This document shows positions 1,460-63,912 of a DNA stretch of 64,000 nt, piece by piece (position 1 is the stretch's first letter; every line of letters begins with the position of its first letter). Under the pieces are notes generated by a model. The model was not told where the DNA came from, did not search any database, and saw nothing but the letters and a program-made list of their open reading frames with translations. The DNA is from Bolinopsis microptera. Lineage: Eukaryota. The DNA lies in contig NC_087073.1 of the NCBI RefSeq assembly GCF_026151205.1, forward strand, positions 19,356,658 through 19,420,657. The letters are read 5' to 3'. The position numbers and the translations under genes are program-made.

Positions 1460-3400
1460 GTGTCTGTAGATGTTCGAAGTTTTGGCAGTAAAGTGCTCAC
1501 AACACAGCTTCTGAAGGCTCTAGAAGGTTCCCGATACCGTCAGAGTGTTCAGTACACTCCATTCTATCATATAAGAACCCTAAAAGAAGTCCCAGGGCTC
1601 GAGCAGAGAAGTGCAATATTTGCCCGTAAGAGCCTCTACTATTAAGCAAGCTGTACCACACATAGTTGAGCCACTGACCCACATTGTCAATCTGAGCCTT
1701 AATACAGGTGTTGTACCAACCCTTTGTAAAAAAGCTAGAGTAACTCCCATCCATAAGGCAGGAATGAAAGATGATCCTAATAATTACAGGCCAATATCCA
1801 TCCTTCCACTTGTAGGAAAACTTATAGAATACTTTGTCGGCAAGCAACTCACTGATTACATGGAAGAGAACAAACTTTTCATCCGGCATCAATATGGCTT
1901 TCGGAAAAATCACTCCACAACTTATCTGATGTACGATCTGATGGACGAAATATATATGAGTAAATCTAAGTCTTATAAACCAGGAATCATCTTTCTTGAT
2001 CTTAAGAAGGCCTTTGACACAGTGAATCATGAAATATTGCTTCAAAAATTGGCATATTATGGAATTGGTGGCATTGCTTTAACCTGGTTTAAGAACTTCT
2101 TATCTTGTAGATATCAATGCACTAGGATCAATGGCAATCTAAGCTCATTTTTAGAAGTTCTGAGTGGTGTACCACAAGGAAGCATCATTGGGCCTATATT
2201 ATTTAGTATCTTCATAAATGACATCATTTATGCCTGTAACCTATCTAAGCCCTTTCTATTTGCAGATGATGGTGCACTATTCTTTGATCAAACCTGCAGA
2301 AGCACATTTATAAACATGAAAATAGAACTTATGACAATCTTTAAATGGCTCAGTGTTAATAAATTATCACTCAATGAAAAGAAGACTGAATTCCTATTGT
2401 TTGATTCTGTTGACCAACATGATGAAATAACCATTGATTGTAATGAGGTAACTTTCACAATCAAGGAGTGCAAAGAGACAAAATATCTTGGCCTCATTCT
2501 AGATAGTAAATTAAACTTCAAAAGCCATGTAGATTATATTATTAGGAAGGTCATGAAGAGAATTGGTGCCATGTATAGAAGTAAAGCACTGCTACCCATT
2601 AAATATAGGAAAATGTTTGCCAATGCACTCATGTTGCCACAATTCGATTATTTAGACACGATCTATTGTAGAGCTGGCAAGACAAAACTTGCTGAACTTG
2701 ACACTCTGTACAAAAAGGTAGCCAAAATAGCTCTCAACGTTCCAAAAACAGAGAGCAGCCTTAATGTTTATAGAGACATGAAATGGTTACCACTCCATCT
2801 TAGACGACAACTCCATCTGTCAAATTATATGTTTAGAATCATCCATGACAATTGTCCTACAAACTTTATGAACAAATTTAGTTACATATCAGGAGGTAGT
2901 AGGAGCGGCGAAAGCTGCAACCTTTATGTCAATAGATCAACATCACATAAAAACTTTCAATACTTGGGGGCAAAATGTTGGAATAATGTTCCAACAGATC
3001 TACGAAATCTGCCCGATGTTAAAAGCTTTAGTGATTCGTATAAGAAACAGCTACTATCATCTATAACAACAGACCCTAATTATACCGTCGACAATTCATA
3101 TGACAAATTTTACACTGCAATCATAGTCGCCGATAACTAAGTAACTTCTAATTCTTTTAAATCTGAGGCATATATAATTGATGTATCGAAAAGATATTCC
3201 CTTTTTTACCACCTTACCATTCTGATTGATTTTGCACATGACTGACATGTTTTAACTGGAGAAGGGGTTCCCACAGTGGTAGTTTTATAAACCACTTTTA
3301 ATTTATTGACCTATTATACTTAGTGGTAGTTTTATAGACCACATTTAATTTATTAACTTATCATACTTAGTATTTTTTTTGGTGACTGTATCACCCAGTT
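1460..3400 (+). mobile_element. 5'-truncated non-LTR retrotransposon copy (CR1/L2/RTE-like) with RT only and no endonuclease. Short tandem duplications lie in the 3' UTR.
   Basis: The 509-aa ORF carries RT motifs 0-7. No APE domain lies upstream. The upstream reading frame is broken at 1460-1645. A ~45-bp tandem duplication sits at 3270-3370 in the 3' UTR. Confidence 0.75.
1611..3140 (+). CDS. LINE ORF2 reverse-transcriptase domain (partial ORF2)
   Basis: Translation contains KARVTPIHKAG, NYRPISIL, QYGFRKNHST, FLDLKKAFDTVNH, GVPQGSIIGPILF and FADDGALF. This is the canonical non-LTR RT motif order 0 to 5. Confidence 0.85.
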   Translation: MQYLPVRASTIKQAVPHIVEPLTHIVNLSLNTGVVPTLCKKARVTPIHKAGMKDDPNNYRPISILPLVGKLIEYFVGKQLTDYMEENKLFIRHQYGFRKNHSTTYLMYDLMDEIYMSKSKSYKPGIIFLDLKKAFDTVNHEILLQKLAYYGIGGIALTWFKNFLSCRYQCTRINGNLSSFLEVLSGVPQGSIIGPILFSIFINDIIYACNLSKPFLFADDGALFFDQTCRSTFINMKIELMTIFKWLSVNKLSLNEKKTEFLLFDSVDQHDEITIDCNEVTFTIKECKETKYLGLILDSKLNFKSHVDYIIRKVMKRIGAMYRSKALLPIKYRKMFANALMLPQFDYLDTIYCRAGKTKLAELDTLYKKVAKIALNVPKTESSLNVYRDMKWLPLHLRRQLHLSNYMFRIIHDNCPTNFMNKFSYISGGSRSGESCNLYVNRSTSHKNFQYLGAKCWNNVPTDLRNLPDVKSFSDSYKKQLLSSITTDPNYTVDNSYDKFYTAIIVADN

Positions 3401-4041
3401 TTAACATTTGATAATTGTACAGTTTATTGACGACACATTGACTGAATGTTATTTTATATTCTAATTTATATTCTAGATATTTTATTTATTTTACAACAGA
3501 CGACAACTTCCTGTTTTTTCTTCTATATTAGTTACTCATATCTCTTGTACAGACTTTTTACAAGGACATTGACAAATGATACTCACATTAGGCATTCATT
3601 ATTGCATCTAAATTATTTCACTTGCATTAGGCTTAGAAATTTATTCTCTGGTCAACAGATTTCAAATGTTTAATTAATTTGTAGTATGACAGTAAGGTAT
3701 ATAAGAAGTTATTTAATTTTGCTTGGGCTATTATATTGACTAGGTATTGAGGTTTAATGATGATATGGAATTTGAATTCTATATAAATTTACACTATGTG
3801 GTTGGGGCATTTTGCATAGTAAATATGGTTACTACTCATATATATCATATTATTTGATTGGTATTCGATTTCTGATTATTTCTCTAGGAATATGATTATT
3901 ATATCTCAATTTGGCTTTAGGTAGGGTGCCCCGCTAAAAGAACTGGATTCTTCCAGGAAGCATCCCGTGCACAGAGCTTGGTCTACATATATATTAAATT
4001 ATTAACCATTCATTCTGTATGTGCACGAAAATTTATTTCAA

Positions 4042-4623
4042 TCAATGATGTGGAACACTATCAAATGCTTTACAAAAATCTAAGTAAAACACATCTACGG
4101 GTGCACCATCTTCTAATAGTTCGATGATACATTCTACACTCTCTAATAGATTAGATAAACAAGATTTACCTTCTACAAATCCATGCTGGTTTGGATTTAT
4201 CTTCTTACTAACAAAACTCATAATATGCCTCCTTACTAATTTTTCATATAATTTACACAAAATGCATGTAAGTGACACTGGCCTGTAATTTAGGGCATCT
4301 TTCCGACTACCCTTTTTATAAAGAGATGTAACATTTGCTGTCTTCCACTGTTCTGGAATTTTTCCACTTGAAGCACATGTTTGAAATAATTTAGTCACAG
4401 CAGAAACAAAACTTGAATTATGTTCAAGTTCTTTTAATAATTTAGGATGAATGCCATCTGGCCCTTTACTTTTACTAATATTAATGCTTTTCAGTTCTCT
4501 GCCAACATCATCCATTGTTATCTCAATATTTTCAATGTGTAACTCATCTGCAATAAAATAACATTCTCTGTTCAAAGGTCCATCTGGTTCTTTGACAAAA
4601 ACTGAAGCAAAAGCATCAGCCAA
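4042..4623 (-). CDS. LINE ORF2 RT N-terminal motifs (0-2), frameshifted relative to the endonuclease ORF and truncated
   Basis: Motifs WKTANVTSLYKKGSRKDALNYRPVSLT, HGFVEGKSC and VFYLDFCKAFDSVPHH. Confidence 0.7.
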   Translation of the reverse strand: MADAFASVFVKEPDGPLNRECYFIADELHIENIEITMDDVGRELKSINISKSKGPDGIHPKLLKELEHNSSFVSAVTKLFQTCASSGKIPEQWKTANVTSLYKKGSRKDALNYRPVSLTCILCKLYEKLVRRHIMSFVSKKINPNQHGFVEGKSCLSNLLESVECIIELLEDGAPVDVFYLDFCKAFDSVPHH

Positions 4624-4635
4624 TACTTCGGCAGT

Positions 4636-5865
4636 TTAAAAATTACTTTTGGTCAAAGATCCGTCAGGTTTTTCCAGGGATGATACACAACTTTTTAACA
4701 CTCTTTTCCCTCTTAAATATGCATAAAATGGCTTTGTATTATATTTCATACACTGTGTAATTTTTCTTTCATAATTAACTTTACACTTAAATGACTTACT
4801 ATCAAACTGTCCTTGTTGGTTCAGTGCAACATTAAGATTTTCAGAAGAAGGATTATTATCAAAAATATACCAACATTTATCTGTCTTTTTCCTGCATCTT
4901 TTTAAGGATGAATTTGCCCAAGGCTCACATTTAAAGTTCTTTTCCGTCGGAACTATATCAGATACTAAGTTAAGCTTTGAGTGTAACTCACTCCACATAT
5001 CTTCAGAAGTTAAAGTACCCTCACTAAAAGACCAGTCAATTTCAGCTGATCTGTGTAACAATTCTTTGCCAGAGACTTTTCCCCATAACTTTCTAGGCTC
5101 CTTTGCAGCCTCATCATCTTGCTTACTGTTACTAAGACTTAGATTTAATTCTACATTAAAACAAACATGATCGCTCTTCCCCAAGGGGGAGACAATCATT
5201 ACTTCATTGACAATAGCTTTGTTTGTAGAGAGAACCTGATCTAGTGTACTCTCTTGAAGTTTACCGCTGACAACTCTACGTCTGGTAACTTCATCTGTGA
5301 TATACCAAACCAAGCCATTGTCTTGTACACATTCCATAAAATTCTTTTCTATAATTAAACCCTTATTACTTGTTCCTAAAGGAGCATTAACAGTTCCACT
5401 AAGCCAAGATACATTTGGTAAATTTAAATCTCCAACTAGGATTGATTCAACATTAAAAACAGCTAGTTTTGCAATCATTTTGGTCATCGCATTGTTCTGC
5501 GCTTTAGAAAGAGACATTGATCTATAAATACATGCAATATTTACCCTACCAATGTTGCTATCGAATTCAACAGCAATCGAATCAGTGACCCTAAACCAAT
5601 CTATGACAACTGGGTTCAAAGAGTCTTTAATATAAATAATACAGCCTCCACCACTACTAACAGAACTTTCTCCTACTTCTTCATTAACTGTAAAATCTCT
5701 ATCTTTTCTAAATATTTTGAAACCAGGTATGCTAATTTCAGCATCAATAATTTCATTGTTAAAATGAGTTTCATTTATGCAAACAATGTCAGACTGGTAC
5801 AGCGAAACAGCATTTCTCAATTCACAAAACTTATTACATAAACTATTACTGTTACTATAAAACAA
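4636..5865 (-). CDS. LINE ORF2 N-terminal part: APE-type endonuclease domain
   Basis: Motifs CINETHF, GDLNLPNVSW and SDH are typical of the endonuclease/exonuclease/phosphatase fold in LINE ORF2. Confidence 0.7.
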   Translation of the reverse strand: MFYSNSNSLCNKFCELRNAVSLYQSDIVCINETHFNNEIIDAEISIPGFKIFRKDRDFTVNEEVGESSVSSGGGCIIYIKDSLNPVVIDWFRVTDSIAVEFDSNIGRVNIACIYRSMSLSKAQNNAMTKMIAKLAVFNVESILVGDLNLPNVSWLSGTVNAPLGTSNKGLIIEKNFMECVQDNGLVWYITDEVTRRRVVSGKLQESTLDQVLSTNKAIVNEVMIVSPLGKSDHVCFNVELNLSLSNSKQDDEAAKEPRKLWGKVSGKELLHRSAEIDWSFSEGTLTSEDMWSELHSKLNLVSDIVPTEKNFKCEPWANSSLKRCRKKTDKCWYIFDNNPSSENLNVALNQQGQFDSKSFKCKVNYERKITQCMKYNTKPFYAYLRGKRVLKSCVSSLEKPDGSLTKSNF

Positions 5866-5882
5866 TTTAAGGTTTAGGCATT

Positions 5883-6572
5883 CTATAGCTTTGCTTTCTC
5901 TGCAAGTCGCTTTCTCCGTTCCTGTCTCACAAAAAATTGGACGTCTCTGTCAGCTCTGTTCAGATCCTGATTGATCCAATAAACTTCTTTCTTCGTTTTC
6001 TCAGAATCCACTTCTATCTTCCAACCTTTCCCATAGTTACTCCAATACAATGCAGCCTCTTTTGATTTTAGTTTTACAATCAGCGGTCTAGGTTGATGTT
6101 CTCTGCTTTCACCAGATTCAGTTAATTTACCTGCCCGAAAACAGGACACAATCACGTCTTCTTCCATGCCACAAATTTCATGTAAAAACTTGAGATCATT
6201 GCTTTGAGATCTGTTCTCTTTGATAGCCGTTTCGGGAACGTGTCTAATGATCACATTGCATTCTCTTTTGATCCGTTGGATCTTGTCAGCATCAATCTGT
6301 TGGACTGTTGCCTTCACTAATTGAGTTGGTGGCTTGTCACTAATAGTTGCCTGGAGGTCAACCTTCGCTGCATCAACGTAGCTCTTCACTTTTGAAGATG
6401 ATTCATTGACTATATCTTTTTTGACAGCAGCCATTGCGGTTGGTAACGCGTTCTGCAGACTGTTTTTAACAGCATTGGTAATCGTTTCATTAATGGTTTC
6501 ACTCAACTTGATCAGCATTGTTGTCGCATTGACAATGCAGTGTGGACACTTATATTGTTTGATCAAAAGCAC
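5883..6572 (-). CDS. LINE ORF1p-like (coiled-coil + RRM-like NVIIRHVPE motif + CTD)
   Basis: ECNVIIRHVPE resembles the L1 ORF1p RRM motif N-I-I-V-x-G-x-PE. It sits immediately upstream of ORF2 on the same strand. Confidence 0.5.
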   Translation of the reverse strand: MLLIKQYKCPHCIVNATTMLIKLSETINETITNAVKNSLQNALPTAMAAVKKDIVNESSSKVKSYVDAAKVDLQATISDKPPTQLVKATVQQIDADKIQRIKRECNVIIRHVPETAIKENRSQSNDLKFLHEICGMEEDVIVSCFRAGKLTESGESREHQPRPLIVKLKSKEAALYWSNYGKGWKIEVDSEKTKKEVYWINQDLNRADRDVQFFVRQERRKRLAEKAKL

Positions 6573-6573
6573 C

Positions 6574-6650
6574 TGGGGCTAGGTGGCCTAGTGGTTAGAG
6601 CATCCGCCTTCTGCGCAGAAGGTTCAGGGTTCGAATCCCAGTGTCACCTA
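6574..6650 (+). pseudogene. tRNA-derived (tRNA-like) degenerate sequence, either a SINE head or a tRNA pseudogene. It is not a bona fide tRNA.
   Basis: It carries the D-arm-like GGCCTAGTGGTTAGAGC and the T-arm GGGTTCGAATCCC. A perfect 7-bp acceptor-like pairing joins CTAGGTG and CACCTAG. The cloverleaf cannot be closed: there are 3 extra nucleotides between the T-stem and the acceptor, and the D-loop is too short. Confidence 0.35.
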
Positions 6651-16832: not shown

Positions 16833-19815
16833 TTGTACTAAACCCAAAGAAGATTCAAGAAAGATATTGTAATTTGATAGAATGTTCTACAGTCACATTG
16901 GTATCTGTTACACCAACTTTGAATTCGTGATTGTGGTGTTTGAAGTTTTATTTTATATATTCACTACTTCAGGAGTTTATCAGTGAAAAAGACACTCTTA
17001 GGCTCAGTCTGAACAACACACAAGCAGAACTGCTCAAGTTACAGAAACTGTTTAATTCTAGCCAGGAGGAGTTACGGACGGTGAAGAGAAATCTCTTATC
17101 TACGACAGAGGAACTCAATGGCACTAAGATTAGTCTCGAAGAAACAGCACTCAAATGGAATGAAACAAGAATGAGGCTAGAGAATACAACCGTAGAATTG
17201 AATGAAACTAGGACCAAACTAGATGACGCAACTCTAAAACATTCAGGGTGTACTGTAAGTAGAACGGAACTTTTAAAAACCAAATTATTATATTATAGAT
17301 CTATGAATTTTATACAGGTTCTTTATATAAATGGCAATAAAAACCAATTACATTTTGGTTACTGGGAATCGGCTTGAAAAACTACAGAAATGTTACAAAA
17401 CTTTTCAGGAGAGGCTGAATGAGGCGCAGAGAAACTAAAGAAATGTTACAAAACTTTTCAGGAGAGGCTGAATGAGGCGCAGAGAAATTTTCGCTCAAAA
17501 GAAGAGGAACTCAATGAAACAAAAGTTGAACTAAAAAGCACTCGAACTATTTGAAATTAAAGCTGAGCTCGGGGACACAGAGTTGGAACTGGTTGGAACA
17601 AAACTAGAAGTGAAGAATGTCAGTGAGACTAAATGTGCGCTGCAAAAAGGATTCCTGACGAAATGGGACGTCCTGTACTCTTGTGATTACTACAACAAGA
17701 CTTTTACCCTCCGGCTATATAGACAGCTACAGACAACGTGGGCCTCCCTTACTCGTAAGAATTAATTCTTTTCATCAAATGTCTAGATACTCTGTTACAT
17801 CCGATTTAATATTCTATAACGTAGGACTATCAAATTTCATGTTTCCTATGAAATTGACTACATAAAAGGGGCTCACATTTTTCGAGCCCGCCTTATCTAC
17901 AAACATTTCCTAACAATCAGCATTAGGTATGTCAATATAAAATTCCCACTATTTCAGGCAGAATATTGGGTATGACTATCACTGACAATCTCATTGAATT
18001 CATCAAAGATATAGATGAAGAAAACAGCTGTGATGATTACTCCTAAAATAAATTGCGATACGTCGCACTTTGTTCAGTATTAAATCTAAAGTAAGCGTGA
18101 TTTAACGTTACCGAAACTCTTTATAATTTTAATTGAGACACCGTAATTACCAAACATTTTTGTGTCAAACTTTGGGATCAATAAATTTGAGTACCAAAAA
18201 TGTTTGCATGAAATTTGGACTTGTTTAGATATGAAGTAATTTTGCTCTTATATTATAATATTAATGATATTTTATCAGTCTTGGATTATCAAAATCATAA
18301 AAGTATCTAAAGATAAAGAAAAAGACAATAGTATCTTATCTCATTTAGATATAGTGTCGAAGGCAGTCAAGGAACTAATACATCGAAGGCAGTGGATGAC
18401 AAACTGATTAATTTTAGGCATATTGTGGACAAATAATTTTTCTAGGCAGGACTACTCGTTAATTCCCTACAGTATACACATCAAACCACAACCATTGGTC
18501 CAATACGCTGACTATCACACAATTTGTTTTGAGGAAATCCTTTTTCCTATATCATTGAGTCTGTTTGATAAACCTGGCCAGTGGCCAGAGCCCAGAAAAC
18601 ACTATTTATAATTATATCGGATGTATTTCGAGCTCAGCACGCTGAATCGATAAAAGTCAGTTCAAGATGTGATGGCGGCGAACAACAGCCTATCTACAGA
18701 ACGTTCGCCCAAACTTTTGATCGCCCAAATTTGTGGGAACTTAGGTTATAGGTAATCAGGGTTCAGGGTATCCTTTACCCATTTATCTCACCTGAAAGCT
18801 TCTGCAACTCTACGATCAAGGTTTTTAGATGGTTTAGGAATGTTATTGAGTGTTTTCTGGATATGGAGCTGTTGTCGTTGTGTAACGAGTGTTGTTCTCC
18901 TCAGCTGGTTTTCCAGGTGGTTCAGTCTGGATTGTAGCAATCTCTCTTCCATCAAGTTGTGATACTTCGGACCTGGACAAGGGTAAATGTCTAGTAATGC
19001 CATGCTTACCATATTCAAAAAGGAAGATTTTATACGATAAAGAGGAATCATTCCGTTGTACTTGTAGTTTTTAATTGTATTCGTAGACGAATAAAGTATA
19101 ACGGTATTTCGGTAATTTATCAGGTTTCAACTAGATATTTGCTACTAAAATCTATGATGTAATAATTTAAATTTGACGAATGCAGTGATATATCAGATAT
19201 TGTACCTTTAAGGCTGATGTCCGTTTCCCTGAGATGCACAGTGCAGTGTATGGGTGTCACTGCGTGATACGAGGCGCAAAATACAGACGGGTTCATTCTT
19301 AAAACCAAAACTTCAATATTTAAAAGTCAAAAGGAAGCTTTAATAACCGCAAATAGAACAAAAATCACTCACAGCTACTTAAAACGTCAATTTTCTCAGC
19401 ATTGGTGAGCGGCACGTTATTGAAGACGAACTGCTTGATATTGCTGTTTAAACTTACCGATATACGGATCAATTCAGCAGATATTATAACGTCGTTCGAC
19501 AGATATTTCAAGCAAGAAAGTTAGGTTAAAACGGACGGCAGAAAGCACTACAACGTTGTGATGAGAAATCACGTCAAAGATTATTATTGCTTGTCATGAT
19601 AATATTGCCCGAGATTAAAGACAGTACCGATACGTGCTAGTGTTTGATGTAATGCGTCTGGTGTCTCTGTACTTGCTCGTGAATGGTGGTTTTAATAAGT
19701 AATTAATGAGTCTGTAAGTAGAAAAGGTCGGGTGAATTGGAGTCGTGTGATAGTGTGATGTGTGCACGACATCAAGACGATGGGTAATTACATGGAGTAA
19801 TCTGCCCTGGTATAT

Positions 19816-19935
19816 AGTGGGATAGAGAGTAAAGATAAGATAGAGTAAAGATAAGATAGAGTAAAGATAAGATAGAGTAAAGATAAGATAGAGTAAAGAT
19901 AGGATAGAGTAAAGATAAGATAGAGTAAAGATAAG
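19816..19935. repeat. 16-bp tandem repeat GAGTAAAGATAAGATA, ~8 copies
   Basis: Direct reading. Overlapping ORF 19615-19977 is a translation artefact. Confidence 0.85.
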
Positions 19936-20823
19936 ATCTACACAAAAACAGGTATGTTCGTCATGTAATTTTGTCATTAGGATTCATCTGGTAATTATGC
20001 AGACGGAATGTCAAATTTTAAAAATGCTTGTAATTAGAGCTTGTTTTTAACTATGATCTTAGTGGCAATTGTCTCGGGTGGCATATTTTAATTCTTATCT
20101 TATCTTATCTTATGAGGATTCGTTGCGACGCAACAAGGCCATCGAATGAGTCGACCACCTTTGTTATTTTACTTCGGCATTACCTGCATTACAATGTAAA
20201 CCAGCACGTTCAAGGAAGAGCTTTACAAGAAGCCGAAGGATCGTTCCTAAGGCCAGCGACGGTTAAGGCACTTTTTAAGAATTGAAACTTTTGATTTGAA
20301 AGGTGCCAGGTAAGTCAGAATTCTTAAATAAATCAAGTCAAATGTCAGGTTGTATTTACACAGCAAATGAAACTACATTCAACATTCCATAAGTCAAAAT
20401 ACACTGTCGTATTCATTAGGGACCTTAATCTGCGTATCAAACTTTATCTTACTTATTAGATTTATTAACAGGAAAAGGTTCCCTTGAATCCTTCACTTTC
20501 CTTTAATCCTTCACTTTCCTTTAATCTTTCACTTCCATTCAATCTTTCACCTCAGTTTGATCTGCTTATTTTTGCAGATATGAAAATTAACAAAATATAT
20601 CGTCGAACATAGCAACTGCAAATGAACTAAATGACAAACATTTTTCTAAATATTCAAATATAAATGAGCTATAATCCAGAGTTTGAGTCAGTGAAACGCC
20701 TTTGAGCCAGTGGCTGACATCTCTTTTGTAACTGGACTCCTGTTAAGAATTTGCCACATTTCTATCGTAAATATTATTCAAGTGAGCCATTAATCTAGAT
20801 ACAATTGCTGCTAAATCCCAATC

Positions 20824-20968
20824 ACGTGGCGGTGACGTCATGTGGTGGTGACGTCATGTGGTGGTGACGTCATGTGGCGGTGACGTCATGCGGTGGTGAC
20901 GTCATGTGGTGGAGACGTCATGTGGTGGTGACGTCATGTGGTGGTGACGTCATGTGGTGGTGACGTTG
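20824..20968. repeat. 16-bp tandem array GTGGTGACGTCATGTG, 9 units. Seven carry the perfect CRE palindrome TGACGTCA.
   Basis: Perfect TGACGTCA occurrences are 16 bp apart. One unit is a variant AGACGTCA and the last is truncated (TGACGTTG). A CACGTG E-box lies at 20823. Confidence 0.85.
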
Positions 20969-23656
20969 TTGTTATTGTTGTCTCCACCATGTGCTACCTC
21001 TATAAGGTTTAGAACACTGAGAAGTCGGTTAATCGCTGGTTTATTCGGAGTAGTTTCTGAGTTCTCTTCACTTTCCAACCCTGAAATTGTTTTTATTGTC
21101 TGCTTAATACACTGCATCTATAAAGTCAATTCGGCGAGTTTATTTGGCTTGATTTAATCTAATTTTGTATGGCTCTGCGGATATGATTGAGTTCATTTTT
21201 GATTATACGACACTCTTTTGACACTCTTTTGACACTCTTTTGGCAAAATAATTCACCTAGATATTACATATCAAAGAAATTACTTACCAAGCCAAATAGA
21301 CTGTCGCCACTGTACTCAAAACAAATGATACAATAACGCCTTGAACCACACTAAGCATGTTAACCCCTAGGAAAATTCCAGTGGTAAAGACTTCAACATT
21401 TTGAAATGTTCACATGAAAAGTGCAAAATTTGTATTATCAACTAATTCATGTGCGAGGTATTTTACAAGGTTTATTCATGTGTGCATTCCTGCAGCTGCC
21501 AACCCAAAAAGAACGCCCACGTAAGATACATTTTACAGACCTTGAAGTTCAGTGATAGCAGGTGGAGGGGAGTCCAAAGATAGGCTCTTTCTGGGAGATA
21601 GAGGCTGATGTTTTGGGTTTCCTTGATCTCCATAGATAAGGACTTTGGAGAAAGGTGTTCAGGACTGTGCAGTGACATGCTCTGGGCTCGGGACCGATTC
21701 TGAGAGTTGTTGAGTTGTAAATATCTAGGCCACACATTTGTTTTGACGCAAACACGTGATGTCAAACACTATTTCCATTGCCAATATCTACAAATATGAC
21801 ATCTAAATTAATATACACTTTCCTAGCACTACCTCACTTAGCACTTACTAGATTTGTTTTCTTTGATTTCTTGAGAACAGCTCTGCGATTGACGACAGAC
21901 TTAAAGTGTCTGGTTTTAAAGGGCTCCTGTCCTCCCAAGTTCTCAACATCTCCCATATCAGCTGTTGATAGGAATGAGAAGGATTGTCGGAGTCGCTCCG
22001 CTTTCAGATACTTCGTCCTTGGGTCACATATGTTAAGATCAACCTGGCGTTCTGTTGATTTATTAAACTTAGTTGCTCAAATGCAAATGAATACAACTAG
22101 CGGCTAGTAAAAACTGAGATGAACGATGTTGAAAAACAGCCCAAAAACCTGAGGCAGTCTTTAGCGTTATAGAGTTGCGAGAAAATAGTTTGAATTTCAG
22201 CATCTGAGTTTAGAGGGTCTCTCCAATCACCCAGTACAATAGATCTGTGTGTCTTGCTACAACCTTGATCTGTTAAATATACGACACATTATTTATCATT
22301 CAACAAAAACAAAAGGTTTTAGATCGTATATCTGGAAAATTTTGCCATGATATGTCTCTGCCTATATTTCTTCACTTCAAATGAAGGCTTGCCTCACTTA
22401 CCAATAAGCGACCGAGCGGTGCAGCAGGACCATCTCTTACACTTGTAGGCTCCAGGATGGTAAAACTTGAGAGTCTTTGTGTTCTTTGAACAGGTCTTGC
22501 GGAGTGAGGATATCCACTCAGTTACCTCGTTCAATGTCTACAGAGGATTACTTTATATTATTGTATTTGTGACCAATATTATTGAAATATCATCAAATTT
22601 TGTTTTAATAAATAACAATAAAGGTGTACTTAAAATATACAACCCACCGAACCTTGAGTTTCATGTACAGAACAGAAGGACGCTCGTTATTCTTGGATAT
22701 CAGTATCTGTAGTATGTGTTTGTGTCCGAACACGTACTTATCCACTCTTTCCACCGAGGTGATATCACTGATAGCTATCAACTTAGTGCACCCTAGTGAC
22801 TGTCCCTGGAGATGTTGCATTAAGCGGGTCTTTTCAAATGGGGGCTGCTTCACGATTACATCCTTTGCAAAGTTTTCATCCTTATATGTTATGATTGGTG
22901 GCTTTTATTTCTTATTTGTACGCTCAAGCCTATTTTATATGACCTGATTCATACCCAACGAGCTTCCGTGATTATACTACGCCCTTATCTTTCTTTAGCA
23001 AAAAATACAACTTGCACGAAATTTATCAAAAATTCATAGTTATGAGAAATTATCTTAATCTGATAAAAACATGAAATTGGACGGCTTCCAAAAGCTGAAA
23101 AATCAGAAACTTGAGCTAAACTTACCGAAGATGCTTTAGAACCGTAGCTAAGTGCTGCGAAAGACAGAGAGAAGAAGCGTTTCTTGAATACTCGGACTGT
23201 TTGGGATTGTCCGAGACTAATCCGGTATTTCTCAGCCCACCCACTTTGTATTATCGTGGTGTGGGAGAAGAGATGTTGGGAGGTAGGGGTCGCTATCTTG
23301 GCGGGAGGGCTGCTGCCTGATAAATAGGCAATTGTTAACAACAAATATTATCTTGTTATCGTAATTTCAGTTATGAATTGTTGTATTGATAAGCTTAGTT
23401 AGGTACCCTCTTTAGAATTAGAGACACTACGATCCAATAAAGCCCGTTTGATTGGCAAAATATCGAGGGACCATCCTTAGATTGAATTTTGGAGCCAATG
23501 ACCGAATATCTACAATATAAAATTAAAGTACTCAGTAAAATAAAATATCATGATTAAGTCTGTCAGCCATCCTGCAGTATTATTATAAAGATGATGTAAT
23601 TTCGCCGCCACAATTTCAAAATTTCAAAATACTACAAATCCTGTCAGGCAACCATT

Positions 23657-23975
23657 AGCAGCTCCAATCTTACATTAGCAGCTCCAATCTTACATTAGCA
23701 GCTCCAATCTTACATTAGCAGCTCCAATCTTACATTAGCAGCTCCAATCTTACATTAGCAGCTCCAATCTTACATTAGCAGCTCCAATCTTACATTAGCA
23801 GCTCCAATCTTACATTAGCAGCTCCAATCTTACATTAGCAGCTCCAATCTTACATTAGCAGCTCCAATCTTACATTATCAGCTCCAATATTACATTAGCA
23901 GCTCCAATCTTACATTAGCAGCTCCAATCTTACATTAGCAGCTCCAATCTTACATTAGCAGCTCCAATCTTACAT
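23657..23975. repeat. 20-bp minisatellite TACATTAGCAGCTCCAATCT, ~16 copies
   Basis: Direct reading. Two variant units occur at ~23875. Confidence 0.9.
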
Positions 23976-24545
23976 TTGTAGATGGTCACAAGATTGCTGA
24001 TAAAGTGTCGAACGTTGTCTGTTTGCCTTTCTACAAAAGGGAGGAGGGGGAGCATGAAACTCTCCTTACACGGCTGAGCGCACATGTTACCTATCTGCTG
24101 CATCGCCTGAAACATATCAGAAGATAAAACACTACCAGAAATTAATAACAAGCAATTGCACAAAGTTTATTCCATTTAAGATAATAATAACGTATTTCGT
24201 TTGATCCATCCGTACAGAATAGTTGGGGGTAACCTATCATTATCTAACCTTAGCACAGAGCATAAGAGTACGAGATATTCTCATGTTAGGGTGATTGCTG
24301 TTTAGGTAGAACAGTTTAGGGTTCATTATTGCGGGAACGAAGAATCTCAGAAACACAAAACTGCTCACTGCCATATACTGTAGGTCCTGATGGTTGTAAT
24401 GGGGATACATGTTTAGAATTCATTCTGGTGAAATCTATGTTTCATATCGAAGAATGAAATCGCGATTTAAAATAAAAAGTGCGAGTCAAAAGTCGAGATG
24501 ATTTTGCCAGGTTTGATTTATCGTAAGAAAATATCTTAGACTTAC

Positions 24546-24714
24546 TGGATTTTCTGGGAATGTTCTATGAACAAGGTCAAATATCATGGCGCAAACTTTG
24601 CGAATACCAAAAGGACTAGCAGTCTTTGACTGCATTATACTGTTCACTATTTCCATCAGATACAGATTTATCTGTTTCGTACTCTGCTTCACTATCGCCT
24701 CTTTATTCAGTATC
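24546..24714 (-). CDS. RasGAP exon (GAP domain), phase 2 to 0
   Basis: Branch-point TACTAAC plus acceptor GCTTTCAG. It encodes ...EIVNSIMQSKTASPFGIRKVCAMIFDLVHRTFPENP (RasGAP KFPE motif). Donor GTAAGT. Further downstream exons (PH/BTK) were not resolved. Confidence 0.6.
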
Positions 24715-24999
24715 CTGAAAGCCTGAAGTTAGTAAAATCCGCTTTTATTTGGGGTAGCCATCAAAGACACATCTTCTTAAAACCAATTTAGAGCAATAAT
24801 CTTTATTAAAAAGAGGCAATATTGGAGTTACCTCAAATAGAAACTATCGCTCCATAAATACGACTCGACCTCAAAAAGCAGATCCCAATATAGTCTAAAC
24901 GGTAGATATTGTCATTAAAACAGGCCGAGGCCCGAGAGGCCCGAAAGGTCAGTCGCAAACTGCCAAATGATGCTCTATATATTCAATACCTACCCGTAC

Positions 25000-25144
25000 T
25001 TTTTAGTTATCCTCGACTTGTCCATTTCGCAATACTTGTTCTCCTTGTAGATAAGCTTTATTGTCTTGCCCAGCACATTTTGTAGGTATAGTGTACCCGT
25101 TATCTTCATATACTGGTCCATACATTTGGAGGCCAGGGTGTTCT
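25000..25144 (-). CDS. RasGAP exon (GAP domain), phase 1 to 2
   Basis: Acceptor CATTTTCAG. It encodes ENTLASKCMDQYMKITGTLYLQNVLGKTIKLIYKENKYCEMDKSRITK, matching RasGAP FRGNSLASK...YL..VL. Donor GTACGG. Confidence 0.65.
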
Positions 25145-25428
25145 CTGAAAATGTAATAGTACAGGACGTGTTGTACAGCATCATGGACTGATGTGCAATT
25201 GGTGTAAAATAGTAAACCTGTTACATCCAATATACGAGAAGTAGTCAGTCGTCATCATGCACACTCTTATATTATCATTAGCTTACAATTCGTCAGCTTT
25301 TTGAAGGTCACGACCTTTTGATGGTCACGACTCGCGAAATGTAAACTCGTTTTTAAATCCGTTGAATTTGTTGTTCAGTTGATGTCATTTGCAAGCAGGC
25401 TGACCCGTGTATGAACTATGAATCTTAC

Positions 25429-26629
25429 CTCTGAAAATAGTCTCAGGAGTAGATTTCTTAGCCTCAAGAGTGAACAACATGCTCAGGAGCCCCTCTATCT
25501 TTCCCTTTCCAAGGAATATCCTGACCAACATGTAGGCCATCTCCATTCTGTCCGTCATGGCTTCCTCCAACAAAGCTAGCGGAGTAATCCCTGTTCTGGG
25601 TATTCCGTTGGTAAAGTTATCCACCTGGAGGATATTCATTAAATTGTGGATATTGTTATATTTTTGTAGGGTAGCTATTTTTGTACTTTTGTGAATTGAT
25701 ACTTTAGAAAGTAAAACCGAACTTTTCCTAATCCAAACCTCCTCAATAAGTAAGTCAATAAGTGGTTGATAAACTAGGGAAGGTAGGATGGATGCCGTGA
25801 CATATCTTATTTTCATTCTTATTGACCCGGCAGCTTGGTGCCCTATAAAGTCTCTCGGTTTCAACCAGAACCACTGATTATACTCCAGTTTCTTCTCAAT
25901 TCTCTTCAAACTAAACGTGATCTCCCCCATGAACTCATCCTTCCCCACAATGTCCCTGTCCCAGAGGGTCAACCGAACTATCTGGTCTGCAGTATCAGCA
26001 GGAACAGGTAAAGTGGTCATCGCATTCCACCTAGGGAACCGGGTCTGTTTCCTTATCTCCGTCTGATACGAGTTTGATCCGAGAGTTAATATCCCGTATG
26101 GATCGGAAGACCCTGTTTTGTCCTTGGCTGCCAGGTCTCTCGCTTCTGCGATTTTAACATCAAGTTTCGTCTCAGATAGCTTGAACTCAAGTCTCACCTC
26201 GCCTGTCACCTCAGAATCCTTAGTCACCTTCTGAAGAGCAAACCAGCGCTCATCCCCAATATTATAGTCTCTCACCATCTCCTTTTTCGTCAGAGTCACC
26301 TTCCCAATGACGTCATCATACCTCAAATCCTCGTCGTACACGTAAACAGAGAGCGCGAAGAAGTTGCGCTGCACGTGCAGCGTGTACTCCTCCCCCCAGA
26401 AGGGGGACAGGGTCCGGTATATGGTCATTGTCCGTAACACTGTCTGGCCGTCCACCTTGACTACACAATACGGGTCTGATGATTTACTCAACGTGTCCAT
26501 TATGGGAAAGTTTTTGCCCTCCGCTATTTTGAGGAATATGGTTGTTTTGGTGTTGTCACTTTCGAATTCATCGTCTGAATCGTTCATAGAACTTGCTACT
26601 GCTTCCATCAGCCGGTCATTAGTTTTCAT
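25429..26629 (-). CDS. RasGAP (GAP1 family: RASA4/RASAL-like) exon encoding tandem C2 domains and the start of the GAP domain. It ends at the arginine-finger FRG.
   Basis: C2A: SDPYCVVKVDG...YVYDEDLRYDDVIG. C2B: SDPYGILTLG...LWDRDIVGKDEFMGE. The exon ends ...TPETIFRG before a GTAAGA donor, in phase 1. Confidence 0.75.
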
Positions 26630-27770
26630 CAGGCTGCAAGAATAATGTGAGATTTTAATTAGTTTATGGGTATCTTTCTACTTATAAAAATTGTAAAGTA
26701 ACCTAAAGTAAGTATTGTAGGGAGCATCACAGCTCTCGACAGACAAAGTGAAACAAGGTGAATAATAATAATTGAAAAACTGTTCAGAAATAAATTATTA
26801 ACCATATTAACTATTATTGACCATATTATTAACCATATGAACTAAATTAATAAACTACTGTAACTATGTTTAACTATTATTAAATATTTTAAAAAAAAGT
26901 TTATTTAAAGTTTGTCTAAACCCTACAGATATATACAAAATGATAGCGAATTATTGTCGGTTAAAGCAATAATTGAGTTGCTTATCCTGCCAAATAGTTT
27001 TGGTGACTTTATCAAAAGGCAAACTTGACCTGTGGTGCCTGATTTGATTCTAGGAAAATGCCATTCATTTCCATGGTGCTACTAAGTAATGGAATAGACG
27101 AATTGAGAATTATTGAGGCATCCCGGGTCTTAAATACTGGTGTGCCCAATTCATCTTAATACCAAGGTCCAATTTTTGCCGTTTAATAACTGTCAAAATT
27201 TGATCGAATGCAAAGAATTCAATTTCGCTGATATTGCTTTTTCAATATGTCCCTGGAATGAGCCCCAATATTTTCCTGGTACCAGAAGTATTTCCATTTG
27301 TTCTGCATGATATTTGATATTGGGCCCAGGAATTTGTTACTCAGTTAGGACTACGTATATTACCGTTATTAAGGATTAATTTTATAGTGTCACTGCCTTC
27401 CAAGGAACACTTCCCCACGTCACGGTGACGTTACGTCACCACTCGCTTAATAATCCCACGAAAAGGCTATGGTCAGGAAGGGGGGAATGAAATGCGGTGG
27501 GATTTGAGTTTATAAATCTATTCTATAAATAGATACATTATTACAAAGCATTTCACATTGTCACAAGACACAGTACCGCGGACTTTTAATTAACCATTTT
27601 CTGGAGATTGATACCAGTACCAGTACCATAGACCAGTCCTGCTGGAGCTTGTTCGTGGAAAATCAGCTATTCTTAAGGATGCAACATTATGGGGAAATTG
27701 TTTAGATGGACAATTTAGAATATTGTGACCAATCACATATATATAATATATATATTTTATATCAATCAAG

Positions 27771-42770: not shown

Positions 42771-43517
42771 TGCTTTTTGCTGATGAAGACTCTGTTCCAC
42801 GAGTACCGAAAGTCGTAGACTTTATAATCGTATTTTATCCCTTAAGCCGTTGATGGAAACATATAATAGTAATAATAACTATAATAAACATTATCATATT
42901 AGTGGACTTTCTTGGTTGGGCTCTATCAATTTATCTTGATCGATCCAATCGTAGTAGTCTGGAACGAGTTAAATTTTAAGTTTGATGTATAAATTGAAAT
43001 TCTTAAGTTTCAACTAATATTCCAGCGATATATATCGCTGTCAGAATGAAGGTGAGCGATTAGACGGGCGACTACGGAGATGTCGGCCAAACACCCGACC
43101 AGTTGCAATTATCAACTAACCTGGAAGATAACAGTTGACGATCTGATCGATAAGCTGCAGTTAGCTGCAGTCTTGCTAGGAGAGTAGGGGGCGTGATACT
43201 ATAGCACAATCAATAATTTTTACAATTAGTTCATGACGCAGTTAGCATGACACAATACCATAAGATTATTCTAATTACAGTCGCAATTAGCGACAGTAAG
43301 TTAGATATAACATGTTAGTAATACATTAGTTAGTTATATGTAACATGCAAGTTGTACAAGTGAACGCGCTATTATTGCAGTTAGTAAATTGACAAACAGG
43401 TGAAATATTCAAATTCTCTGACGGCTTACCTTGTTTGACAGTGATATATCGCTGGAACGCTATACTGAACCGTATTTCTCATCATATGGAGGCCACGAAA
43501 ATCACGCGGACATAGTC

Positions 43518-44783
43518 AGCTGCAAGTACTAGTAGTAGTACCAGCTCAAGAACATTGTCAGGTGCAAGTACCAGTAGTAGTACCAGCTCAAGGACATTGT
43601 CAGGTGCAAGTACCAGTAGTAGTACCAGGCACCGGCTCAAGGACATTGTCAGGTGCAAGTACCAGTAGTAGTACCAGGCACCGGCTCAAGGACATTGTCA
43701 GCTGAAAGTACCAGTAGAAGTACCAGCTCAAGGACATTGTCAGGTGCAAGTACCAGTAGTAGTACCAGCTCAAGGACATTGTCAGCTGAAAGTACCAGTA
43801 GTAGTACCAGCTCAAGGACATTGTCAGGTGCAAGTACCAGTAGTAGTACCAGCTCAAGGACATTGTCAGGTGCAAGTACCAGTAGTAGTACCAGCTCAAG
43901 GACATTGTCAGGTGCAAGTACCAGTAGTAGTACCAGCTCAAGGACATTGTCAGGTGCAAGTACCAGTAGTAGTACTAGCTCAAGGACATTGTCAGGTGCA
44001 AGTACCAGTAGTAGTACAGCTCAAGGACATTGTCAGGTGCAAGTACCAGTAGTAGTACCAGCTCAAGGACATTGTCAGGTGCAAGTACCAGTAGTAGTAC
44101 CAGCTCAAGGACATTGTCAGGTGCAAGTACCAGTAGTAGTACTAGCTCAAGGACATTGTCAGGTGCAAGTACCAGTAGTAGTACTAGCTCAAGGACATTG
44201 TCAGCTGAAAGTACCAGTAGTAGTACCAGCTCAAGGACATTGTCAGGTGCAAGTACCAGTAGTAGTACCAGCTCAAGGACATTGTCAGGTGCAAGTACCA
44301 GTAGTAGTACTAGCTCAAGGACATTGTCAGGCTGCAAGTACCAGTAGTAGTACAGCTCAAGGACATTGTCAGCTGAAAGTACCAGTAGTAGTACCAGCTC
44401 AAGGACATTGTCAGGTGCAAATACAAGTAATAGTACCAGCTCAAGGACATTGTCAGGTGCAACTACCAGTAGAAGTACCAGCTCAAGGACATTGTCAGGT
44501 GCAAGTACCAGTAGTAGTACCAGCTCAAGGACATTGTCAGCTGAAAGTACCAGTAGTAGTACCAGCTCAAGGACATTGTCAGGTGCAAATACAAGTAATA
44601 GTACCAGCTCAAGGACATTGTCAGGTGCAACTACCAGTAGAAGTACCAGCTCAAGGACATTGTCAGGTGCAAGTACCAGTAGTAGTACCAGCTCAAGGAC
44701 ATTGTCAGGTGCAAGTACCAGTAGTAGTACCAGCTCAAGGACATTGTCAGGTGCAAGTACCAGTAGTAGTACCAGCTCAAGGA
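43518..44783. repeat. 42-bp minisatellite, ~30 copies, with higher-order variant structure. It is open in all six frames.
   Basis: Unit CAGGTGCAAGTACCAGTAGTAGTACCAGCTCAAGGACATTGT. Variants GCAAATACAAGTAATAGT and GCAACTACCAGTAGAAGT recur as a 4-unit block repeated twice at 44366-44700. Indels at ~44010 and ~44330-44350 break the frame. Confidence 0.9.
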
Positions 44784-61461: not shown

Positions 61462-63912
61462 TCAAAGATTAGAAAATTCTGCCATTTTCCCCCACGATTC
61501 ACCGACCTCCACCTTAACTTTCAAGGGAACGGAAAGGTGGATTTCACTCGTAAACTCGGACGACTCTAACATTTGATAAATGACACGTGCAAACTGATCC
61601 ACGTTCTCGTGATAAACTTCATAAAGTAGCTCGTCATGAATCTGGATGAGAAGTTGAGCATTTACTTGATTGTTAGATTTGAGATAGTCAGAGAGTTTCA
61701 GCATTGAGACCTTGCAGATGTCAGCTGCAGAACCTTGGATGACAAAGTTCACCGCTTGTCTTTCAATAGACTTTCTCAGGGCAAAATTGCTTTGGTTGAT
61801 ATCTGGAAAATGTCTTAAACGATTCAGAATTGTCCGCAGTTTTTTGGTACCTCTGGCCCTTTTGATGACAGCGTTTGTGAACTTGGATATGTTCTGAAAC
61901 TTTGCAAGAAAACTGCTCATCAACATCTTAGCCTCTGATAGTGAAACTTTTAGTATTTGGGATAGCTTAGGAATTCCGACACCATAGATAATAGCATAAC
62001 AAACACGCTTAGTTTTGTTCCTCTCAACATTAGAGACACTCTCCGATGGAATACTCTTCCAGGAGGCAGTTAGAGTAGTGAAAATGTCGTCGGAACTTTT
62101 AAACATCTCAATTAGTTCCTGGTCTTTAGCAAAATGGGCAAGAATTCTCATCTCGATAGAACAGAAATCCACTGCGACAAACTGGCATCCCAGGGAGGGT
62201 ACGATAATTTCTCTTACAGAATGACTGCTCTGTTCATCGTCCACATTGTTTTCAATAACGTCTTTAGGAAATGCCTGAACGTTAGGGTTGAAAGCAGCCA
62301 AACGGCCTGTAGCTGCGGATGTTTGGTCCCAAGAGGGGTACAGTTTTCCAAACTTCATGTACTGATGCAACCCATCCACATACGTTGATTTCAATTTACT
62401 TATCCTGCGATGAGCCAGAATGATTCGAGGAAGAGGATGAAGTTCTGTTAGTTTTAACAAACATGCCTCAGATGTGCTCTTTTCCCGTTTAGCTGCTGTC
62501 CGAGACATGTTATCTGGTATTTTCTCGTCTAATTTCAGCTCTTCGTAAAGAATTTGTCTTAACTGTACAGGGCTGGTTAACAACACATGTCGACCTAGTA
62601 CGGATGATGCCTCCTGTTCTATAACTGACAATCGTTTTGTCAGATAGATGCTCAACAGGTGAAGCTCTTTTTTGTCGATACAAATACCAGTTTGGCCCAT
62701 TTGGCATATTGTCCCAAGAAGAGGACATTCCAAGTATTGGAACAGGTTTAATAGCCTTTCCTCGGTGAGATGACTGTAAACTGCTTGTTTTATATCTAAA
62801 ATCAAAGCGAGAGAGGAATGAAGTTGGAAGGAAAAGTTGTTATGTGAAGCCACATTTGCAGTAGCTAAGTTATACCTCGAATGAAGATCGGACAATTTCT
62901 GTGGTACATCATCAGATGTTAGGAGCCAAGACGCTATCTTCAGGTCTATCATATTCTTAACAACTTCGCCGTTCATTAGAGGCTTGATCAGGATATTGCA
63001 TACAATGTAAAGTTGATATGCATTGAACGAAATTTTGAGGATATCAGATGACAAAACTATGTGCAGAAATTCCACAACGGAGTCATCATTATCACCCAAG
63101 GCAGAAACCGGGACATACAGACCCATGGCCATGTGATCATTCAATTGATCTACCTTAAACAGAAAGCATATTCCGGACACAGTTATTTTTTCAAAAGTTT
63201 GTCTGGAGGATCCTATACCTAGATGCGAAGTGTTATCTGAATAGGAAAGAGCAACAGCTACCTCCTCACATTTCAGCAACACAGACCGGACAGCCCATCT
63301 TTCAGATGAAGTTAAACTTTGAAAATCTTTAAAAGGTTCTTGAATAGAGGAGGATTTTGGTAAACATTTTGACTTGAGAGTTTCCAAAATTTTTATCGGG
63401 TTACTCATTCCATCTTCTGGTTTTGTGATCACCGGAGAATCTTGTTGCGGAATATTTTTACAGTCCAATGTTCTGTTGAAAGCTTCCTTCAGAGACTTTG
63501 AAAATGTACCCTTTTGACTAGTAGCACTATCAAAGTTTCCTGACTTGTTTCCACTTATTGTGTAATGTGTGTTAGCTGAGGTTGACGGTGAAGATTCGAA
63601 TGGTGTGTTACTTTCAAATAGATTAGTGTCAAACATATCAGCGACCAAAGAATTGTTTTTCTGGCAGGTACCAGCTGAGGAATCCAAATTGTTGGAAAAT
63701 AATGGGATGCTGAGTTTATTCCGATTTTGACTGTTGAACTGAGTAGATAGCATAACATGCCCTGGTGAGGACAGAGCAGGTGAAGATTGCAATGAAGTCG
63801 ACCTGTTTGAAAATGACCTGATTAGTTTCTGCTTTCCCCAATTTGCACTAAAGAGACGAGGAGTATTTCCAACTGATTGTGAACTTGGTGTTTCAAGTCC
63901 AGAACGTAACAT
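61462..63912 (-). CDS. Family-A DNA polymerase (Pol theta/Pol nu-like) polymerase domain, intronless terminal exon. The ORF is probably open beyond the window edge.
   Basis: Motif A DFCSIEMRILAHF. O-helix/motif B RNKTKRVCYAIIYG. Motif C QIHDELLYEV. TGRLAAFNPNVQAFP. The C-terminus EVGESWGKMAEF resembles the Pol theta C-terminus. Confidence 0.8.
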   Translation of the reverse strand: MLRSGLETPSSQSVGNTPRLFSANWGKQKLIRSFSNRSTSLQSSPALSSPGHVMLSTQFNSQNRNKLSIPLFSNNLDSSAGTCQKNNSLVADMFDTNLFESNTPFESSPSTSANTHYTISGNKSGNFDSATSQKGTFSKSLKEAFNRTLDCKNIPQQDSPVITKPEDGMSNPIKILETLKSKCLPKSSSIQEPFKDFQSLTSSERWAVRSVLLKCEEVAVALSYSDNTSHLGIGSSRQTFEKITVSGICFLFKVDQLNDHMAMGLYVPVSALGDNDDSVVEFLHIVLSSDILKISFNAYQLYIVCNILIKPLMNGEVVKNMIDLKIASWLLTSDDVPQKLSDLHSRYNLATANVASHNNFSFQLHSSLALILDIKQAVYSHLTEERLLNLFQYLECPLLGTICQMGQTGICIDKKELHLLSIYLTKRLSVIEQEASSVLGRHVLLTSPVQLRQILYEELKLDEKIPDNMSRTAAKREKSTSEACLLKLTELHPLPRIILAHRRISKLKSTYVDGLHQYMKFGKLYPSWDQTSAATGRLAAFNPNVQAFPKDVIENNVDDEQSSHSVREIIVPSLGCQFVAVDFCSIEMRILAHFAKDQELIEMFKSSDDIFTTLTASWKSIPSESVSNVERNKTKRVCYAIIYGVGIPKLSQILKVSLSEAKMLMSSFLAKFQNISKFTNAVIKRARGTKKLRTILNRLRHFPDINQSNFALRKSIERQAVNFVIQGSAADICKVSMLKLSDYLKSNNQVNAQLLIQIHDELLYEVYHENVDQFARVIYQMLESSEFTSEIHLSVPLKVKVEVGESWGKMAEFSNL

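Follow-up and report, generated by a model that had tools for sequence, protein, structure and literature searches.

What is a tandem series of perfect cAMP-response elements (CREs) doing at the end of a conserved coding sequence? In the stretch of the Bolinopsis microptera genome that we analysed (64,000 nucleotides, hereafter the window), a short array repeats the eight-base CRE palindrome TGACGTCA, and the first-pass annotation of this locus had offered two readings: a minisatellite in which a bZIP (CREB/ATF) site is found by chance, or a strong clustered enhancer or insulator. Our comparison of the repeat, its neighbouring genes and its counterparts in related contigs indicates that the array is most likely an ordinary variable minisatellite, not a built enhancer.

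Repeat units and the palindrome at their junctions

The array occupies positions 20823..20966 and, in the minus-strand register, consists of exactly nine head-to-tail ACGTCACCACCACATG units running from 20966 to 20823, which read CATGTGGTGGTGACGT on the plus strand. TRF delimits it at 20822-20966, with a period of 16, 9.1 copies, 93% matches and no indels. Within it, seven copies of TGACGTCA stand exactly 16 bp apart, with starts from 20833 to 20945 and the last site ending at 20952; the whole window contains nine copies, against 0.55 expected from dinucleotide-preserving shuffles. As a repeat, the array is far beyond chance. TRF and the motif count bear out the tandem CRE array described in the first-pass annotation, and the single variant and the truncated copy listed there are both seen in the sequence, the former as the one-base variant AGACGTCA at 20913-20920, the latter as TGACGTTG at 20961-20968, at the array end. 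The array hence holds full CRE consensus sites, seven of them perfect and one with a single mismatch, and its period of 16 falls within the range of about 10-100 bp for the head-to-tail units of minisatellites and variable-number tandem repeats (VNTRs). The spacing of 16 bp corresponds to about 1.5 helical turns (16/10.5), and successive sites do lie on alternating faces of the helix, as had been remarked, a matter of geometry that carries no evidential weight.

A single ACGTCACCACCACATG unit does not contain TGACGTCA. The palindrome forms solely where two units meet (CATG|ACGTCA), so that N units yield N-1 CRE sites plus two half-ends, and the nine units of the window yield eight junction sites, namely seven perfect TGACGTCA and one TGACGTCT. 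At its 5' end on the minus strand, the array begins with the half-site AACGTCA, which lies inside coding sequence and is the 'truncated copy' mentioned above. At the opposite end, the 3' end of the last unit together with its flank (20822..20830, minus strand) reads CACGTGATTGG, which is the supposed E-box plus an ATTGG. The unit register and the two array ends therefore explain all previously listed motifs without separate elements; in particular, the CACGTG that had been reported as an independent E-box at the 5' edge dissolves into the end of the last minus-strand unit, where the relatives differ.

Departures from the unit consensus within the array amount to 1/72 in the CRE core versus 4/72 in the spacer (Fisher p=0.37), and this weak, underpowered comparison gives no sign of selective protection of the core sites. 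At up to three mismatches, the 16-mer is confined to the array throughout the 64-kb window, save for one chance match with three mismatches at 27427. Every unit carries a TGA on both strands, which closes all frames within 48 nt. Within the array, unit 1 alone encodes protein, and we accordingly rejected a coding repeat as an explanation of the array.

A conserved terminal exon that ends inside the array

Upstream of the array and on the same strand lie the exons of a RASAL1/RASA4-like gene with the domain order C2-C2-RasGAP-PH-BTK (22144..26629, minus strand). Its GAP1-family architecture emerges from minus-strand ORF fragments: a 414-aa exon with both C2 domains (26629-25385), the RasGAP signature FLRF..PAI (about 24390-24247), and the PH and BTK exons (YHPGAY..KRWSCC, 23321-22396). 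Among named homologues of the RASAL-like exon, that of the starfish Patiria miniata is closest, with 39% identity, and vertebrate proteins reach 35-38%. The first coding exon, which carries both C2 domains, is unusually long, and a separate array of 16 copies of a 20-bp unit (23653-23976) adjoins a conserved block ending at 23969.

The orthologous locus of a related species, contig L001 (ENA ERZ25070731), aligns to the window exon by exon, the nucleotide identity being 77-89%. Beyond the BTK exon, further blocks align at 22273-22144, 21903-21842, 21610-21539 and 21398-21282, and in a more sensitive search the last block spans 21398-20973. This stretch includes much of a terminal coding exon on the minus strand, E5 (20950..21080), which follows a tttcag acceptor, encodes (G)LESEENSETTPNKPAINRLLSVLNLIEVAHGGDNNNNNVTTT and ends in ...KPAINRLLSVLNLIEVAHGGDNNNNNVTTT before the stop. 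The corresponding exon of L001 encodes (G)HPNEEKTERKLTKPAINRLLSVLDLIEVAHGGDANT, likewise followed by a stop. Nearly all changes between the conserved parts of the two exons are synonymous, and at least 13 codons differ only in this way, with pairs such as GCG/GCA, ATT/ATC, CGA/AGG, AGT/AGC, CTA/CTG, ATA/ATC, GAG/GAA, GTA/GTT, GCA/GCG, GGT/GGG, GGA/GGT and GAC/GAT. Across six taxa, the E5 differences are mostly synonymous, and the peptide was recovered in four more contigs, in all of which a stop follows within a few codons. The AG acceptor, the synonymous changes and the recovered peptide together mark the exon that ends at 20950 on the minus strand as coding sequence.

The first junction CRE begins with the E5 stop codon, TGA at 20950..20952 (minus strand); in plus-strand coordinates, this CRE spans 20945-20952. 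Repeat unit 1 supplies the last four E5 codons (VTTT), and the stop itself is assembled from the TG that closes unit 1 and the A that opens unit 2. The earlier view that no gene lies within 3 kb on either side has to be abandoned: a conserved minus-strand exon stops inside the array, the RasGAP, PH and BTK exons are 1.2-5.7 kb away, and the ATG of the next gene lies at 19296.

Strand, order and splice phase suggest that E5 belongs to the RASAL-like transcript. The conserved exon E3 (21539..21610, minus strand; ...PLSPRKSLSLDSPPPAITELQ) ends in phase 1 and leaves one extra base (CAA G|gt), which, as read from the sequence, joins GG TTG GAA of E5 in the conserved frame. Between the two lies the conserved exon E4 (21282..21398, minus strand; LGVNMLSVVQGVIVSFVLSTVATVYLAW), a hydrophobic, transmembrane-like segment that is conserved in L001 as well. 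By splice phase, inclusion of E4 would shift the E5 frame, which would then stop after three codons (WVGK and stop in the window, WTPK and stop in L001), while skipping of E4 would yield the long conserved tail. This suggests that one exon, read in two frames, may provide alternative tail-anchored and soluble C-termini. No Pfam family matched the tail exons.

A candidate polyadenylation signal, AATAAA at 20461..20466 (minus strand), follows 487 nt past the stop in the context TTTTCCTG(T/C)TAATAAATCTAATAAGT. This context is kept in the related contig L008, 448 nt past the stop there, and L001 has AATAAA at +335 and +500. On the coding strand, the array lies between a conserved stop and a conserved AATAAA, the position of a 3'UTR element, and would form the first ~130 nt of a 0.5-kb 3'UTR. 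The opposite orientation was considered too: a plus-strand promoter, composed of the CRE array and the TATA-like CTATAAGG some 45 bp downstream, was rejected, as CTATAAGG is where the conserved exon on the minus strand encodes N-L-I-E.

Copy number in relatives and the surroundings of the array

A search with the E5 peptide retrieved three short ENA proteins, and we compared the contigs by alignment (A2), TRF and motif counts. In L008-L010, the gene caller had taken the TGA stop for Trp, which resulted in artificial read-through proteins (P0123/P0124; ...VTTTWRHHYM...). The window has nine units with seven perfect CREs, L008 and L009 (two independent assemblies, identical over the aligned region) have three units with two, and L010 has two units with one, whereas L011 (ending in GGDN and a TAG stop) and L001 (ending in GGDANT and a stop) have neither units nor CREs; the counts in the relatives, which may be different species, come from short-read metagenome assemblies, in which long perfect arrays can collapse. 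The units of the relatives are mutually distinguishable and two assemblies agree, which argues against such a collapse. In contigs L002 and L003, from a more distant relative, the locus stops before the terminal exon, and they were left out of the array comparison.

Though unit numbers differ, the flanks are alignable and orthologous, as is the case for a VNTR that varies between genomes. In BLAST comparisons that start from the terminal exon, L009 and L010 are 94.6% and 95.2% identical to the window, and the stretch past the array 86-89%. The first junction provides the TGA stop in every array-bearing taxon. The array ends in CATGATGGGG in L008 and L009 and in CATGATTGGG in L010, and the site corresponding to CACGTGATTGG of the window reads CATGATTGG or CATGATGGG in the relatives. 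Their array ends contain no E-box, which identifies the E-box as one substitution that is seen in the window alone. The CRE sites themselves are not conserved: the close relatives have one or two, L001 and L011 none.

Two unrelated arrays, neither assigned to a strand, lie nearby. One, with an 18-bp unit (20482..20563), would also be part of the 3'UTR and comprises 3.8 copies, versus 7.6 in L008; its unit contains TAATCC and GAAAGTGAA. The other has seven copies of the 16-bp unit AGAGTAAAGATAAGAT (19826..19937), which contains GATA words (AGATAA), and TRF detects no array in L008, a contig that covers the entire intergenic region (window 21784-19197). The neighbours of the CRE array hence include a K50-homeodomain-like word (TAATCC) and a GATA-like word (AGATAA), which the register of tandem duplication produces in the same manner. 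The minisatellite reading of the first-pass annotation gains support from all of this, that is, from the series of zero, two to three and nine units, from the junction origin of the sites and from the likeness to the neighbouring arrays.

At the scale of the window (GC 37%, CpG o/e 0.75), TRF finds 31 distinct tandem arrays with a score of at least 50, which make up 8.5% of the bases (5.4 kb). A period of at least 10 and at least three copies are seen in fifteen of these arrays, and nine of the fifteen contain one or more of 18 ad hoc transcription factor consensus words (e.g. GATA, TAATCC, CCAAT), which illustrates the look-elsewhere problem in reading such words as sites.

The window holds several further features. 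Six copies of a 171-bp satellite, 98% identical, occupy positions 1-1022 and run off the window start. LINE fragments on both strands follow at 1611-6572, with an RVT_1 ORF on the plus strand (1611-3140) and endonuclease and reverse transcriptase ORFs on the minus strand (4042-5865). Together with the RASAL1/RASA4-like gene, these LINE ORFs mark the window as animal DNA. Adjoining the LINE fragments is a weak Rfam tRNA match (6577-6649, plus strand, 33.6 bits) that ARAGORN did not confirm and that is perhaps a pseudogene or what is left of a tRNA-derived SINE. An array of 30 copies of a 42-bp unit (43508-44783, 94% identity) has open frames of 405 aa on the plus and 300 aa on the minus strand and could be either a 14-residue coding repeat or an open-frame minisatellite; Pfam matches of these ORFs were sub-threshold noise only. 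Finally, an uninterrupted 816-aa family A DNA polymerase ORF (Pfam DNA_pol_A) spans 61462-63912 on the minus strand; among solved structures, human DNA polymerase nu comes closest (E=1.7e-100), and the ORF is apparently a POLN-like gene without introns.

Mobile or dispersed origins of the CRE array were also considered. We rejected a satellite borne by an LTR element, another transposable element or a Helitron: no long direct or inverted repeats and no flanking terminal repeats surround the array, and the unit has no second copy within the 64 kb. Expansion in place between orthologous flanks excludes an insertion. A non-coding RNA gene was likewise discarded, as the Rfam gathering scan gave just the tRNA-like match at 6577-6649, with no family near the array, and ARAGORN gave none. 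The two-unit pattern had no match in the viral and none in the prokaryotic collection, and a dispersed family in metagenomes was rejected as well, since the sole matching sequence (L006 = L007) has unrelated, non-tandem TGACGT words. In that sequence, two TGACGTCA sites lie 16 bp apart (CGTGACGTCATGCGGCGGTGACGTCACGG; L006 3440-3650 = L007 1500-1710, minus strand) within a non-tandem cluster of further words of the TGACGT type; the cluster resembles a CRE-rich stretch from another organism. A dispersed minisatellite family, which had been named as the finding that would speak against a regulatory cluster, did not turn up: both across the window and among all fetched loci, the unit was seen at this locus alone. 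Our literature search on TGACGTCA minisatellites found nothing relevant.

Beyond the array, the next gene on the minus strand starts with a first coding exon at 19203..19296 (MNPSVFCASYHAVTPIHCTVHLRETDISLK, then gt), whose ATG lies at 19296-19294 and whose product begins MNPSVFCASY. A second coding exon follows at 18780..18975 (minus strand; GPKYHNLMEERLLQSRLNHLENQLRR...AEAFR); the L001 protein is nearly identical. Third codon positions account for 24/37 of the mismatches to L001 in the first exon and for 29/44 in the second. This gene fits no Pfam family, and a search of 5.8 billion proteins gave two metagenome ORFs as its only matches and no named homologue. Further exons probably lie at 15572-15379. 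The ATG and the array are 1.53 kb apart at the near edge and 1.67 kb at the far edge. Window and L001 have non-coding blocks and a GTAAGT/GTACGT donor in common at about 19660-19460, which suggests that the 5' exon and promoter of the gene lie there, about 1.1-1.3 kb from the array. The array is therefore probably not in the position of a promoter-proximal CRE, which typically lies at most a few hundred bp from a TSS with a TATA box: it follows a stop codon, the ATG is 1.53 kb away, and the putative TSS region is at about 19660-19460. Single TGACG sites are found nearer to this ATG, at 19576 and 19389, and the 1.16-kb intergenic region of L001 contains no TGACG half-site.

Origin of the array, rival explanations and significance

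We hold it to be quite probable that the array is a lineage-specific VNTR that arose in place at the boundary of coding sequence and 3'UTR, and that its CRE motifs are by-products of the unit junctions. The ancestral state would have been a single copy, ...AAC GTC ACC ACN ACA TGA TTGGG, without any CRE, and a 16-nt segment straddling the end of the coding sequence would then have been duplicated in tandem. Growth to two or three units may have taken place in the common ancestor of the array-bearing taxa, and later growth to nine units in the lineage of the window, where each junction of a unit end (..CATG) with the next start (ACGTCA..) would have created another TGACGTCA. Slippage or unequal exchange presumably drove this expansion, and the array appears to be near-neutral. 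Since the register of duplication makes the palindrome, the CRE cluster is best read as a by-product, and there is no sign that selection built or maintains the TGACGTCA sites.

An exapted homotypic CRE enhancer, by comparison, seems unlikely. CREB/ATF bZIP dimers would occupy the seven to eight sites on alternating faces, the array would respond to cAMP or stress, either enhancing the RASAL-like gene from its 3' side or acting on the next gene from a distance upstream, and its copy number (2, 3, 9) would tune the output between taxa. Functional CREs act mostly within ~200 bp of the TSS, which counts against this proposal, as the likely 5' exon of the next gene (about 19660-19460) is some 1.1-1.3 kb off. 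The sites are, it is true, perfect consensus TGACGTCA with R/Y flanks, and they lie in intergenic DNA about 1.5 kb upstream of an ATG, a position from which a distal element could act and which counts against the VNTR reading; the extra TGACG sites at 19576 and 19389 are closer still to that ATG. But the motif is a junction by-product, it is missing from L001 and L011 and limited to one or two sites in the closest relatives, the core is kept no better than the spacer, the intergenic region of L001 is free of TGACG, and the two neighbouring arrays, with other 'transcription factor motifs', are equally variable. Potent tandem-repeat enhancers with homotypic motif clusters do have a precedent (PMC13373173). 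Conservation limited to the closest relatives, the lack of excess core constraint, the probable 3'UTR position and the distance to the putative promoter all make an enhancer or insulator less likely, and on this sequence evidence a CREB/ATF enhancer function is disfavoured. Whatever their origin, seven perfect, strong bZIP sites would probably be bound by CREB/ATF proteins if chromatin is open. That the junction-born array has been co-opted into a copy-number-tunable, CREB/ATF-responsive element we regard as rather improbable.

Two further proposals place the function in the transcript or in the germ line. In a 3'UTR element, which we consider very unlikely, hairpins of the (ACGUCACCACCACAUG)n RNA, paired between units via the self-complementary UGACGUCA, or else protein or miRNA sites, would affect how stable the mRNA of the upstream gene is or how it is translated. 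The array begins at the stop codon, upstream of the conserved AATAAA, and its predicted minimum free energy of -49.3 kcal/mol is well below that of shuffles (-33.4 +/- 3.5; z = -4.5), but a strong fold follows automatically from a repeated palindrome, and the centroid structure, with many equivalent alternative pairings, is much weaker (-22.6). Copy number, moreover, is not kept, and the array is missing in L001 and L011. Hardly credible, finally, is a self-destabilising recombination motif, in which ATF/CREB would open germ-line chromatin and breaks would drive expansion and contraction of the array. This idea draws on the M26 heptamer ATGACGT, found within CATGACGTCA at every junction, on the differences in copy number between close relatives and on M26/CRE-dependent hotspots documented in yeasts (PMC2396409, PMC3534124). 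It is a pure analogy, as our literature search gave no evidence of CRE-driven hotspots in animals, and the two adjacent arrays, which have no CRE-like motif, vary as much, so that a special mechanism is not needed.

The VNTR reading places the array among well-known elements. Human SLC6A3/DAT1, for instance, has a 40-bp VNTR in its 3'UTR. Like animal 3'UTR and intergenic minisatellites, the array combines head-to-tail units of 10-100 bp with high purity, an origin in place and conserved flanks; like animal VNTRs, it differs in copy number between close relatives, and it sits just past a stop codon, in the probable 3'UTR. Unlike in typical VNTRs, the variation was seen between related taxa or populations, in metagenome contigs, and not within one population, the junction spells a perfect 8-bp bZIP palindrome, and unit 1 supplies the last codons and the stop. 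Multimerised CREs are familiar from the 19-bp repeats of the HCMV major immediate-early enhancer, the 21-bp Tax-responsive repeats of the HTLV-1 LTR and reporter cassettes with 4-6xCRE. The array resembles these viral and synthetic elements in its several tandem TGACGTCA-type sites over ~100-150 bp, but in those elements a TATA box and TSS follow immediately and other sites are interspersed, whereas the array is located behind a stop codon.

Minisatellites and VNTRs have been surveyed genome-wide in animal genomes (PMC8096271, PMC11701250). The MORC3-repressed tandem-repeat element of IFNB1, with 45 PU.1 sites, shares with the array one transcription factor motif per repeat unit, identical sites and fixed spacing; for that element, binding, accessibility and enhancer activity have been demonstrated and the accumulation of motifs is conserved across species (PMC13373173), whereas the sites of the array are not conserved beyond the closest relatives. 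The ade6-M26/CRE hotspot of S. pombe, whose ATGACGT is bound by Atf1-Pcr1 (PMC2396409, PMC9775316), has its heptamer in common with each array junction, but consists of just one site, located within a yeast ORF, and its activity as a hotspot has been demonstrated.

As it stands, the array is one more variable minisatellite, an element of a well-known kind, and matters little. It does call for caution, as an 'array of perfect transcription factor sites' can come merely from the register of tandem duplication. A small gain is the re-annotation of the locus, with a conserved terminal exon, a stop codon within the repeat and a neighbouring orphan gene. If binding and activity of the array were demonstrated, nature would offer here a clean case of a strong enhancer motif that arose de novo and was amplified stepwise between sibling taxa. 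If co-option were true, the growth from two or three to nine units would have equipped this lineage with a new 3' enhancer of the RasGAP-like gene that responds to cAMP or stress, or else with an element upstream of the orphan gene nearby, and the birth of an enhancer from a minisatellite would have been caught in the act, possibly together with CRE-stimulated instability.
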